A DNA stretch of 57,809 nt, from positions 1 to 57,809 of the forward strand of contig JAZDHP010000029.1 in NCBI GenBank assembly GCA_043805855.1, given 5' to 3'. Below are positions 30,001 through 33,000 of the stretch, piece by piece. Position numbers: made by a program. Position 1 is the first letter of the stretch; each line of letters opens with the position of its first letter. The DNA is from Candidatus Micrarchaeota archaeon. GTDB lineage: Archaea > Micrarchaeota > Micrarchaeia > Norongarragalinales > UBA8480.

Positions 30001-33000
30001 GGAATTGCAAAGCAGGCAGTTAACTCACTTCTACTTAAGCCAAACCAAATTGGTACAATCAGCGAAACGCTGGCTGCTGCTAAGCTTGCGAGAAGCGCCG
30101 GGTGGACTGTTTTTGCATCACATCGCTCTGGAGACACTGAAGATACATTCCTATGCGACGTAGCTGCTGGCCTTGCGTGTGAATTTGCAAAGCTTGGAGC
30201 GCCATGCCGAAGTGAACGCACCTCAAAATACAACCGCTTTTTGTATTTAGAAAAGTTTCACAAGGTTAAGCTCGCAAAACCAAAGTTTTAGCGCGTTGTA
30301 AAATTTCCCAAGCGGGAATTTCTTTTTTGGCACGGCTAGTTTTCTCATCAAAAAAATTATCTCTTCCCTCTACCCCTTCACCAGCAACTAAAACAGGCAC
30401 AGTGTCAGAAGAATGTGCTTTTAGCTTACATGGCGTCGAGTGATCTGCGGTTATAATAATTCTAGTTTTTGTTAAATCAACTTTTAAATTTCCAAAGAAT
30501 TTTTCATCAATCTCTTCAATACACTTTTTCTTTTCAATTGGTTTACCATCGTGGCCAAAAATATCCGGGCCCTTCAAGTGAACGTAAACATTTTCACGTT
30601 CAATTTCACGAGCAGCAACTTGCGCGATTTTTGTGTAATCCCCCTCTTTAACACACACTACTTTCATTTGAAACGCTTTGCCGATTCCAATTTCAAGTGG
30701 CATACCTGCAAGAATAGTCCAGTCACGATAATCTTCCGAGGGTAACTCCGTTTCACAATCCCGCAGCGTAATTCCGTTCGCTTGCAATTGCCCCCCCGTA
30801 CTTCGTTTTTTGTTAAAATCGCCTTTTTCCAACGCGGCGTTTACTGCAAGGGTAAATTCATTTACAATTTTCGCCGCTTCAACCGTTTCCTTTTTGCCAT
30901 CAAGTGCAACGCATTCTAAAATTTCATCGCCAAAATTTGTCAATGCGTTTGTAATTCCCCGGCTGTCCTTCTGGTACGCGGGGTCAGTATTTTGTACGTT
31001 TTTCGAAAACTTCCCCTTGAACCAAACAACCCCCCGATGTCCGGCAGTTGCGCGGAAAACAAACGGCACGCTTAGTTTAATTTTGTTAATTTCTTTTTCC
31101 AATAACTTTGCATCTTCGGTGCTTATCCGCCCCGCGCGCCGGTCAACAATTTTTCCGCCACGCAACGTGCAAAAATTAGTCCTGGCAACAAGCCAACCTG
31201 GCTTAAACTCTTCACCAGTTGAAAGTAACTCGAAAATAGAACGACCATAGTGTTTTTCAAACGGGCTAATCCCAAGAATCGACAATACTCCAACATCACT
31301 CTCTGGAGCAACATCTTTCGCAATGCGTGCGTTCCACACAATTGCCCTCTTCGCAAGCGCGTCCATATGCGGCTTGTGAGCCGCTTCAAGTGGCGTCTTT
31401 CCTTTAAGTTCAACGCAGGGTAAATCTCCAACGCCGTCAAGCACAATAAGCAACGTTTTCATGAGTTAAGCTACGCTGGGGAAAAATAAAAAGTAGCGGG
31501 GGGAAGATAATCAAAGGTTATTCAGCTTTGAAGAATCTTCTTTGAACTTCCGGTCTCCGGGTTATGAGCTTCGCCTCAAGCAACTTTGCAGTCGCCCGAA
31601 CCAGCGGGCACTCCTGGCTACCCTTAGGTCAAAATGATCAACAAAACAAGTGATTAAATTGATACCCCGCTGTAGATACAGGAGTGTAAAAAATAGTCAC
31701 AAGGATATTATTAAGCGCTATGCTTTAAGAGAAAATTGAGGTTTAAGCGTACTAGAATCAACCAAGCCGCTTAATGTTGTAATTTTTCTTTCAAGCTTCT
31801 GTAGTTCTTCATCTTGGTCAACTGAATTTAACTTACCTCTACAACTTGGACAGCGAAAACTATTTTCAACAGCTTTTTCAAATTCAAAACAACCGCAGTT
31901 TTTAGTACAACGGTAAACTTGCCCGCCCTCTCCCCGCGCTAATTGTACGCGAAGTTGTTCGTACTCGCGTTTCTTTGAATTCAAAAAGTTTTGCAACGCG
32001 CGGTTTGTGTTTAGCTTCCAGGTATAAGTAAACCAACCTGTTTGCAAGTTTTTCTCGCGGCTATACTCAACCAACCCATAACTATGCAAGTGGTTTAACA
32101 CAGAACGAATCTCAGCAATTTTCATCTTTGTATTCTGTTCTATCTTATCATCAGTAGTTCCGCAGTCGCCCATGCAAGAAACAATTTTCAAACCCTCTTC
32201 TCCCGCAACTTCACGCACAAATTCATTAACATGATCAACAGTAACCCGTGGCAACTGGGGAGAAGTCTCTTTTTTTGGGGTTAGTTGTTTCTTTGCGAAA
32301 CTTTTAGGCAAGATTTTTTGCGCCTCGCTTTTAATTATGTAGAGTGATTTTAAATAACCCTTCGCTCCTGAAAAATACATGGAACCCAGATGCGAACAAC
32401 GCATACGCTGAGAAAATTATAACTATTCTAAACCAGAAAAGTTATTCGCGCGGGCTCGTAGCTCAGCTTGGTAGAGCAATTGGCTCTTAACCAATGGGTC
32501 GAGGGTTCCGAACCCTTTTCTTCTTGAAAGAAGAAAAGCCTTCGAGTGGAAAAGAAGAACTAATAATTTTTCTATCCCGAGAATTGGTTCGCCCAAAAAT
32601 CCCTCCGAGCCCGCTTTCTTCTTTTTACACTCTAACAGAAAGCCTTTTATTGCGCTTTAACCTATTATTTTTAGCATCGGATTATATAGGTGGGTTGAAC
32701 GCAGGTGCGCCAAGTTCAGAATCCAGATATCCTAATTAAAGTGTTTGGAGGGGACTTGGCCGCCGTGTTCTAAAATTATTTTTTGACAACTACTTTTTTC
32801 GTTGTTCCAAAGCGTATTTAATTTCCCTTTTTTCTATTTTTTTGTAAAGTGCGAGGTTGGCAGAGCAGTTATGCATCCGCCTGCAGCAGCTTTTTCTTTC
32901 TAAAGAAAGAAAAAGACTGTGGGAAAAAGAAAGACGATAGTTTTCATTTCTTTTTGGCGCCACGCCCGGCACCTTTTTCTTTCGCAAAGAAAAAGGGGCA

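Follow-up and report, generated by a model that had tools for sequence, protein, structure and literature searches.

The tRNA-Lys(CUU) gene of this Candidatus Micrarchaeota archaeon is interrupted in the T-loop by an intron whose core consists of a perfect pyrimidine/purine hairpin followed by a purine tract that repeats the purine arm of the hairpin in mirror order, that is, with the same bases read backwards. The locus raises the question of what such a module is, whether it belongs to the intron or to the DNA at large, and why the third tract should mirror the purine arm rather than copy or complement it.

Two tRNA introns and the module they contain

The tRNA-Lys gene lies on the plus strand of the window (the whole stretch of DNA that was analysed, 57,809 nucleotides) and comprises the following features.

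32452..32508, plus strand: exon 1 of tRNA-Lys(CUU), acceptor stem through T-loop position 56; ARAGORN and Rfam find this 5' part
32509..32596, plus strand: T-loop intron (56/57), 88 nt, with a relaxed bulge-helix-bulge (BHB) motif; BHB scan, fold z = -3.0, removal restores the tRNA
32503-32506 with 32591-32594, plus strand: central helix of the BHB; BHB scan
32510-32514 with 32586-32590, plus strand: inner helix h' of the BHB; BHB scan
32509..32512, plus strand: 5' strand of the outer helix P0, pairing with 32541-32544 (CGAA / CC / CC / TTCG)
32513-32514 against 32539-32540, plus strand: CC/CC mismatch of P0
32515-32559, plus strand: the whole module
32515..32525, plus strand: pyrimidine arm (Y) of a perfect 11-bp hairpin; hairpin search
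32526-32527, plus strand: hairpin loop
32528..32538, plus strand: purine arm (R); hairpin search
32539..32548, plus strand: 10-nt spacer, which holds the 3' strand of P0
32549..32559, plus strand: mirror purine tract (R'), the exact mirror of 32528-32538, with no mismatch, whereas a direct copy would have 3
32597..32613, plus strand: exon 2, from the reconstruction of the spliced gene
32614-32626, plus strand: T-rich trailer

When positions 32509-32596 are removed, a tRNA-Lys(CUU) cloverleaf of 75 nt results; within the intron, the P0 pairing competes with the inner helix h' of the BHB. A second tRNA gene of the window carries two modules in opposite orientations.

32851..33046, plus strand: tRNA-Cys(GCA) gene; BHB scan, spliced fold
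32887-33011, plus strand: intron of 125 nt at the canonical 37/38 position; fold z = -4.2
32890..32934, plus strand: module A, with Y at 32890-32901, R at 32904-32915 and the mirror tract at 32923-32934
32947..32996, minus strand: module B, in reverse orientation, with the hairpin at 32972-32996 and the mirror tract at 32947-32955

Here, removal of 32887-33011 leaves a tRNA-Cys(GCA) cloverleaf of 72 nt, and the proposal of an earlier note on this DNA that the host sequences are bulge-helix-bulge introns is borne out for both introns of the window. On the RNA strand, module B reads as a pyrimidine tract followed by the pyrimidine arm and the purine arm; it is absent from two congeners (G002 and G003).

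The general layout of the module is a 3-4-bp outer helix (P0), a pyrimidine mismatch or one-base bulge, a perfect 8-12-bp pyrimidine/purine hairpin and, 6-13 nt beyond it, a purine tract mirroring the purine arm, so that the order of the tracts on one strand is pyrimidine, purine, purine, as in class II intrastrand triplex motifs. The first loop is mostly 2-4 nt long, and up to 5 nt. The second loop, or spacer, spans 6-17 nt, is 6 nt in only 14 of the 120 elements compared and also holds the 3' strand of P0, which places it largely beyond the 1-6-nt loops given for ITxF motifs in PMC4666352.

A genome-wide recount of perfect pyrimidine-first hairpins of at least 8 bp returned 76, the number given earlier, with 30 distinct arms, against 5 hairpins of the opposite, purine-first polarity and 0-2 of either polarity in each of three shuffles of the genome. 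One member of the set, an 8-bp hairpin within an open reading frame (56493..56512, no strand assigned), is devoid of a mirror tract and probably represents a chance occurrence. The modules were said to lie almost always inside tRNA or rRNA genes, which is roughly correct for this genome, where reading of the flanks by eye puts 65 of the 76 in or directly beside such genes, but 8 are located elsewhere and 3 are unclear; rRNA proper contains a single copy (C5:60434, in the LSU gene). A T-arm GTTC motif is found within 24 nt of the module start in 31 of the 76 cases on the module strand and in none on the opposite strand.

In 19 short introns, a T-stem helix of at least 4 bp is accompanied by a perfect central helix, and the module begins 3-8 nt past the 5' splice site. 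A strict BHB motif is present at C53:5757, C19:14453, C8:2984 and C45:25319, and most of the other introns, that of tRNA-Lys included, have a relaxed version with a weak inner or outer helix. With a relaxed pipeline, in which BHB candidates were removed before the search, ARAGORN recognised a tRNA in 17 of 50 module clusters; strict BHB motifs combined with ARAGORN recovered few tRNA genes. Rfam searches of 50 module loci yielded, aside from rRNA at L029 and L030, five tRNA matches (two above the gathering score), one C/D-box-like match and matches at chance level. According to an Rfam alignment, the SSU rRNA of one relative contains four module mini-introns in hairpin loops. The sole tRNA_int_endo (EndA) gene of the genome, at C10:27783-28949, encodes a protein of 388 aa that matches the ARMAN-2 enzyme 4fz2 over its full length (E = 9.1e-131), and the host enzyme is, accordingly, a splicing endonuclease of the epsilon2 type, able to cut relaxed motifs. 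Contigs of relatives from two groundwater DNA runs end at the 5' splice site, an observation that we do not count as evidence.

Co-variation of the three tracts and of the outer helix

Among the 73 arms of this genome that are not their own mirror image, 38 are followed 3-16 nt downstream by a perfect full-length mirror and 3 by a perfect direct copy. When arms were tried on the flanks of other elements, 764 of the 5256 pairs matched (14.5%), or, for different arms of equal length, 82 of 1384 (5.9%), and the excess claimed previously (39 of 75 mirrored, 3 direct, 7.3% in cross pairs) is thereby recovered. The failures are mostly attributable to arms that end in GG, where the mirror copy lacks the outer two G: after these are trimmed, a perfect inner mirror accompanies 64 of the 76 hairpins, whereas the opposite strand of these hairpins offers none (0 of 76). 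At each level, the antiparallel third tract presents the same base as the purine arm (T-A.A and C-G.G), the outer GG of some arms being unmirrored.

The rule extends beyond this genome. At loci from other genomes of the order, a perfect mirror accompanies 50 of 83 arms, three-G arms included, and a direct copy only 4; the cross control gave 14%. Between this genome and its congener G002, 14 module pairs are matched by both flanks; the arms are shared in 4 and differ in 10, and in 7 of these 10 the perfect mirror is kept in both members. An example is the spacer tRNA-Ala intron, where all three tracts are one base longer in one of the two genomes. The earlier assertion that the mirror copy co-varies with the arm is thus upheld within the genome, across the order and between congeners at matching sites, and the three tracts co-vary as a purine.purine-pyrimidine triplex requires.

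One explanation that dispenses with a third strand is an alternative-hairpin switch, in which the pyrimidine arm would pair with either the purine arm or the downstream purine tract. As read from the sequence, an alternative pairing of 7-8 bp is always possible because the arms are nearly symmetric, but a switch predicts direct copies, whereas the ratio of mirror to direct copies is 38:3 in this genome and 50:4 in its relatives, and the lengths of the flanking runs are swapped exactly. The mirror versus direct counts disfavour a switch, which we find hardly credible.

The outer helix co-varies as well: P0 of at least 3 bp is present in 86 of the 120 elements, in 54 variants, compared with 14% in the cross control. 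In 67 of the 86 elements, P0 leaves a linker of only 2-3 nt before the mirror tract, so that a third strand in register and P0 are hardly compatible. In most of the minimum-energy folds of 19 short T-loop introns, the mirror tract forms the loop of another, second hairpin; as a predicted apical loop, it has a mean unpaired probability of 0.75. The previous suggestion that the mirror strand occupies such a loop agrees with most of these 19 predictions; a second hairpin of at least 4 bp encloses the tract in 33 of 64 elements against 40% of the cross pairs, which is unconvincing as a general feature.

The strong co-variation of P0 and the position of the mirror tract in the predicted folds are compatible with a module that forms no triplex at all and functions as a double hairpin, in RNA or single-stranded DNA, the purine tract being a 9-11-nt loop read by a protein or a nucleic acid and the mirror relation reflecting some other constraint. 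That the second hairpin barely exceeds its control weighs against this possibility, and neither a symmetric protein nor a Watson-Crick partner explains why the tract should be mirrored and not simply copied or inverted. The idea that the mirror tract has such a partner within 150 nt was rejected, since one is present for 32 of 56 tracts and for 29 of 56 control tracts. Overall, we regard the double hairpin as rather unlikely.

Insertion, spread and the preferred reading

The module also occurs outside introns. Five copies in this genome lie 2-10 nt after the stop codons of protein genes, in the sense orientation, and others are found in tRNA leaders, in trailers and in reverse orientation. Such positions could indicate a terminator-like or 3'-end element, in which the T-rich arm and the two T-rich tracts of the opposite strand would serve as archaeal oligo-T termination signals and the intron copies would be secondary. 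Apart from the five sense copies past stop codons, this idea is in line with the tRNA trailers of this genome, which share the T5-C-T6 look of the module, and with reverse-oriented copies that immediately follow tRNA 3' ends and the endonuclease gene. In a wide sample, an open reading frame of at least 30 codons precedes 17 of the 49 modules that have an adjacent stop codon, compared with 19 of 98 control frames, but this enrichment is weak; furthermore, termination would be harmful inside tRNA genes, the site of most copies in this genome, and the mirrored G positions and the perfection of the hairpin are left unexplained. A terminator role appears highly improbable.

Direct repeats (34, 16+20 and 25 nt) flank three modules in reverse orientation, and target duplications span 25-41 nt overall. 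At the site that follows the endonuclease gene, the target is present once in G003, where the module is missing, whereas in G002 and in the present genome the module sits between two target copies. Of 61 genomes of the order, 45 contain the hairpin pattern, as do 92 of the 301 in the phylum sample, and in a wide scan at least 111 loci carried an identical module of 30 specified bases. The hosts among the matches listed include ANME-1, Methanosarcinales, Halobacteriota, Thermoplasmata, Bathyarchaeia, several DPANN phyla and CPR bacteria; viral contigs gave no match to the full module pattern. Because copies exist outside introns and in reverse orientation, because the module is found as an insertion in DNA, with long target duplications and an empty site in a congener, and because identical copies are spread over many archaeal phyla and CPR bacteria, the module is not the structural tag, specific to introns and to one lineage, that the earlier note took it to be.

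In this genome, which is 92% complete, neither a HUH (Y1) transposase (PF01797) nor a reverse transcriptase (RVT_1) was matched, and hence no known mobility machinery can be assigned to the repeat.

The reading that we prefer, and to which we give about an even chance, is that the tRNA-Lys intron has at its core a copy of a small, A/T-rich, dispersed DNA repeat of the intrastrand-triplex type that is tolerated in tRNA genes through splicing. The repeat would be an A/T-rich relative of the PIT/BoxC/TMECO elements, belonging to class II as read here and to class IV on the complement, with the three tracts held in register by same-base third-strand pairing within a single-stranded fold (T-A.A and C-G.G here, T.A-T and C+.G-C on the other strand). 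Its spread and turnover would take place in DNA, through insertions that duplicate the target and through replacement of existing copies, and in these DPANN hosts it would accumulate in the hairpin loops of tRNA and rRNA, from which the broad-specificity epsilon2 endonuclease would cut it out of the RNA; it would be tolerated in these genes because the flanks of the repeat supply the splice motif for this enzyme. Several observations stand against the preferred reading, namely, the co-varying P0 with its short linker, a spacer beyond the ITxF loop range, the lack of a match to mobility genes and, in one rRNA mini-intron, a gap of only 3 nt between the mirror tract and the inner BHB helix. Within the purine motif, the A.A-T triads are weak. 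All T-loop copies are sense (31 versus 0), which would be expected if whole introns spread but not if the role of the module were confined to DNA.

The strict sense orientation of the T-loop copies would also fit a triplex that forms in RNA. Under this proposal, the pre-tRNA or the excised intron would fold into an intramolecular purine.purine-pyrimidine triplex that marks, stabilises or chaperones the intron. To our knowledge, no natural RNA with a purine third strand has been established. In favour of such a fold are the mirror rule in this genome and its relatives and the start of the module 3-8 nt past the 5' splice site of short introns, and linkers of 6-12 nt that follow the mirror tract could let the chain double back. 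However, the module also exists outside introns and antisense, and P0, together with the predicted second hairpin, would sequester the geometry needed, with the mirror tract in an apical loop in the 19 introns. Imperfect hairpins are scarce, with one mismatch at only about 6 loci (9 rows) against 76 perfect ones, and beyond the outer helix there is no excess of G.U (5 G.T versus 9 A.C), although these numbers are too small to bear on selection at the RNA level. Published RNA evidence is contradictory: Brown 2020 (PMC7583470) lists some favourable reports on RNA-containing purine-motif triplexes along with three negative studies, and according to PMC4666352 RNA does not adopt purine-motif triplexes. 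We consider a triplex in the sense RNA doubtful, the least likely of the triplex versions and, as an account of the tRNA introns, quite unlikely. The same low standing applies to the broader idea that the sense RNA of these introns forms a natural purine-motif (A.A-U / G.G-C) triplex or, alternatively, that the three-tract fold in single-stranded DNA is the propagating form of a tiny mobile repeat, which would seed most of the DPANN tRNA and rRNA introns. Should the contact nevertheless form in RNA, the general view that RNA triplexes of the purine motif are impossible would fall.

Comparison with known systems

Non-canonical and multiple BHB introns, along with the epsilon2 splicing endonuclease, are familiar from ARMAN-2 and other Micrarchaeota and from Thermoproteales, and transposition of introns is known in Thermoproteales. 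The introns described here resemble them in their T-loop (56/57, 59/60), D-loop and anticodon positions, in the occurrence of several introns per gene, in the sharing of related introns among different tRNA genes and in the epsilon2-type EndA of the host. Our literature search found no description of such introns as built from an extra-intronic repeat with a mirror tract and no paper tying triplexes or mirror repeats to archaeal tRNA introns. That most of the tRNA introns of this genome are built from one small repeat provides a concrete, testable source of intron gain in archaea, all the more as the repeat is caught inserting into intergenic DNA with target duplication and is subject to turnover among congeneric species.

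REP/BIME, MITE-like repeats and mitochondrial double-hairpin elements are small non-coding hairpin repeats that insert between genes and into introns. The present repeat is similar in all these respects, but its target duplications are unusually long (25-41 nt), a cognate transposase was not found in this genome, where the Y1 enzyme expected of a transposase-mobilised repeat (REP/RAYT or IS200/IS605-derived MITE) is missing, and the mirror tract has no counterpart in these families.

Among structured RNAs, U.A-U major-groove triplexes are described for the MALAT1/PAN ENE, telomerase RNA and riboswitches in the review PMC7583470. The third strand would likewise lie in the major groove, and the reverse-oriented modules would match the layout exactly in RNA, whereas for most copies the third strand of the sense RNA would consist of purines.

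Recurrent G-rich repeats of Methanomicrobiaceae form an intramolecular antiparallel triplex in vitro according to CD and S1 nuclease probing (PMC8044849). They, too, are dispersed archaeal repeats with a proposed hairpin and purine third strand. Unlike it, they are G/C-rich and exclusively intergenic, carry the third strand 5' of the hairpin and are subject to competition from a G-quadruplex; the available passages of that paper report no link to introns.

The most relevant precedent, in our opinion, is the set of class II intrastrand triplex motifs PIT, BoxC and TMECO of E. coli and other bacteria (Hoyne et al. 2000, as presented by Holder et al. 2015, PMC4666352). The present repeat shares with them the order of pyrimidine, purine and reverse-Hoogsteen purine on one strand, the pyrimidine-motif version on the complement, the dispersed, multi-copy distribution and the sharp differences in copy number between close relatives. 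It differs in being A/T-rich, with 1-3 G per arm, where TMECO is G/C-rich, and in its longer second loop and additional, co-varying outer helix. It also differs in its occurrence in archaea and CPR bacteria, in this genome mostly inside tRNA introns; the words 'tRNA' and 'intron' do not appear in the text of PMC4666352. Holder et al. treat A/T-rich ITxF matches as largely due to chance. As comparative evidence for contact among three strands, the mirror rule, which holds across phyla and many independent arm variants, is unusually clean. If this contact is confirmed, the intrastrand-triplex repeats would extend from the G/C-rich bacterial elements to an A/T-rich family of archaea and CPR bacteria.

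The tRNA-Lys intron in the window

ARAGORN and Rfam detect only the 5' part of the tRNA-Lys(CUU) gene in the window. A scan for the bulge-helix-bulge (BHB) splice motif places both splice sites of this gene in three-base bulges, and removal of positions 32509-32596 leaves a 75-nt cloverleaf. The features of the locus are as follows.

32452-32613, + strand: tRNA-Lys(CUU) gene; exon 1 extends to 32508, up to and including T-loop position 56, and exon 2 begins at 32597
32509-32596: tRNA-Lys intron, 88 nt, relaxed BHB motif
32503-32506 with 32591-32594: central helix of the BHB motif
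32510-32514 with 32586-32590: inner helix of the BHB motif
32515-32525: pyrimidine arm of the module, followed by a 2-nt loop
32528-32538: purine arm of the module, followed by a 10-nt spacer
32549-32559: purine tract of the module
32851-33046: tRNA-Cys(GCA) gene, ~240 nt downstream of tRNA-Lys, whose 125-nt intron occupies the canonical position

The purine tract is an exact mirror of the purine arm. An outer helix (P0), in which 32509-32512 pairs with 32541-32544, extends the module hairpin, in competition with the inner BHB helix. The tRNA-Cys intron contains two modules, one in sense and one in reverse orientation. Alignment of the locus with its congeners showed that the reverse module is missing from them and that their tRNA-Lys T-loop intron differs from that of the source genome (G000). 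In one congener (G003, contig C30), tRNA-Lys has an additional D-loop intron not present in G000, and ~60 nt separate the pyrimidine and purine arms of its T-loop intron, perhaps owing to an insertion nested within the hairpin loop. The window also carries a 5S rRNA gene (3636-3751, - strand, Rfam 76.8 bits), separate from the 16S-23S operon on contig C5.

Hairpin, mirror tract and outer helix

The combination of hairpin and mirror tract in G000 exceeds chance. This 1.03-Mb genome contains 76 perfect pyrimidine-first hairpins of at least 8 bp, compared with 5 purine-first ones and 0-2 in shuffles, and a perfect full-length mirror lies 3-16 nt downstream in 38 of the 73 arms that are not their own mirror, as against a direct copy in 3 of the 73, so that our recount agrees within small differences with the hairpin and mirror counts of the earlier note. 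When arms were tried on the flanks of other elements, 14.5% of 5256 pairs matched, and 5.9% of 1384 pairs did so when this control was limited to different arms of equal length. In arms ending in GG, these two bases are not mirrored; once the terminal GG is trimmed, a perfect mirror is found in 64 of the 76 copies, and in none of the 76 on the opposite strand. The number of distinct arms is 30. Some module-bearing sequences at the ends of contigs are identical (C20:14452 and C31:78; C5:75394 and C8:56) and probably stem from double assembly of the same locus; the total of 76 may thus be one too high. Four hairpins (C56:2241, C8:9688, C2:11946 and C45:23349) lack the mirror tract and are followed by a common motif, namely, a short A/T hairpin and a CTGAGTCA-like box, close to a TGATG box, that may correspond to C/D-box sRNAs embedded in introns.

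P0, of 3-4 bp, is separated from the hairpin by a C.C or CC.CC mismatch or by a one-base bulge. At least 3 bp are present in 86 of 120 elements, compared with 14% of 14,018 cross pairs, and at least 4 bp in 42 of 120 compared with 3.8%; the 54 sequence variants of this helix indicate its strong co-variation. In 67 of the 86 elements, 2-3 nt separate P0 from the start of the mirror tract.

Fold prediction for 19 short introns of 57-94 nt (mostly T-loop introns of 57-64 nt) yields a T-stem of at least 4 bp, mostly 5 bp, a central helix (most commonly TTCG/CGAA or TTCA/TGAA) with three-base bulges, and a junction that carries the long hairpin and a second, short one. In these predictions the mirror tract forms the loop of the short hairpin, with a mean unpaired probability of 0.75. 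As a general feature of the elements, a second hairpin enclosing the tract hardly exceeds the control.

Genomic setting, spread and turnover

Judging from flanks read by eye, 65 of the 76 copies lie in or beside tRNA or rRNA genes, including copies in D-loop, anticodon-region and T-stem introns and in several leaders and trailers, one copy in LSU rRNA and two in the spacer tRNA-Ala. A T-arm motif precedes 31 of the 76 copies on the module strand and none on the opposite strand. Relative to the neighbouring gene, at least nine copies have antisense orientation; five follow stops of protein genes by 2-10 nt in sense orientation, and one is directly preceded by a C/D-box-like sRNA (C63:10309-10370, positions 137-198 of locus L039; SNORD31 model, E = 1.8e-4, under the gathering score). 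The rRNA operon (C5:55607-64899) is heavily interrupted, with an SSU match of 2437 nt for a 1478-position model and LSU matches of ~6.2 kb for 2987 positions, and contains only one triplex-type module in the LSU. Trailers at tRNA 3' ends, e.g. after C17:8408, C8:41805 and C58:2523, bear T5-C-T6-like tracts that resemble module pyrimidine arms and may be a terminator signal of G000.

Three reverse-oriented modules lie between long direct repeats of their target, which measure 34 nt, 16+20 nt and 25 nt and are spaced 101, 88 and 87 nt apart from start to start; one of these insertions consists of the 47-nt module and nothing else. Downstream of the sole splicing endonuclease gene of G000 (C10:27783-28949, locus L131; epsilon2-type, 388 aa, 4fz2 E = 9e-131), where the module lies 23 nt past the stop codon, G003 has a single target copy without a module, whereas G000 and the congener G002 have the module between two copies. 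The latter two differ in arm run lengths in all three tracts and, by a compensatory change, in P0. Of the module pairs of G002 and G000, 14 could be matched by the two flanks; the arms are the same in 4 and differ in 10, and in 7 of these 10 a perfect mirror is present in both members. As T-arms resemble one another between tRNAs, the T-loop pairs are not certain to be orthologous. A search of G000 for HUH transposases and reverse transcriptases found none.

Among 61 genomes from the order of G000, 45 contain the core hairpin pattern; the copy number reaches 39 in the relatives, compared with 57 in G000 and 0-5 for the reversed control pattern. Across a phylum sample it is very patchy (92 of 301 genomes), from 15 of 15 in one family to 1 of 75 in another. 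Among 91 hairpins fetched from relatives, a perfect mirror accompanies 50 of the 83 non-symmetric arms and a direct copy 4 of the 83 (cross control 14%), and three-G arms are also mirrored. The boldest reading of the earlier note tied the module to a lineage-specific family of introns. The module itself is not lineage-specific: with one fixed arm and one genome per prokaryotic species, the complete three-tract module was found in at least 111 loci, and, going by record titles, the 80 loci listed include ANME-1/Methanophagales, Syntrophoarchaeum, Methanosarcinales, Methanomicrobiales, Halobacteriota, Thermoplasmata, Bathyarchaeia, Micrarchaeota, Iainarchaeum, Woesearchaeota, Nanoarchaeia, Aenigmatarchaeota and several CPR bacteria. 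A relative that belongs to a different family (G013; locus L099, C63:4668-5290) has four mini-introns of 62, 66, 75 and 92 nt within a 450-nt stretch of its SSU rRNA, exclusively in hairpin loops, each with one module as its core; the first has a textbook BHB motif. Our literature searches yielded no description of such repeats in archaeal tRNA introns.

A possible triplex in DNA or in RNA

To our knowledge, a mirror repeat is not a product of any DNA rearrangement. Direct copies would be expected of a Watson-Crick switch, and no enrichment of a specific Watson-Crick partner for the mirror tract was detected; hence the simplest explanation of the co-variation is that the tract and the purine arm pair antiparallel, like base with like, as in the purine-motif triplex rule. 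Three features count against a simple triplex picture: P0 and the short linker, which are at odds with a third strand in register, the long second loop, and the A-rich third strand. On the complementary DNA strand and in the RNA of reverse copies, the triplex would be of the well-established T.A-T or U.A-U type. In the sense RNA, only a purine-motif triplex would be possible; the evidence for this motif in RNA is contradictory according to PMC7583470 and negative according to PMC4666352.

We therefore favour a reading of the module as a DNA-level repeat that would be spliced out upon landing in structured RNA genes; the triplex contact may form in RNA as well. That T-loop copies are found strictly in sense orientation fits whole introns spreading between tRNA genes via conserved T-arms, and it also leaves room for a role in RNA. 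In its layout, the module corresponds to the class II intrastrand triplex motifs (pyrimidine, purine, purine; PIT/BoxC/TMECO) known from bacteria, and its complement to a class IV pyrimidine-motif element (PMC4666352).
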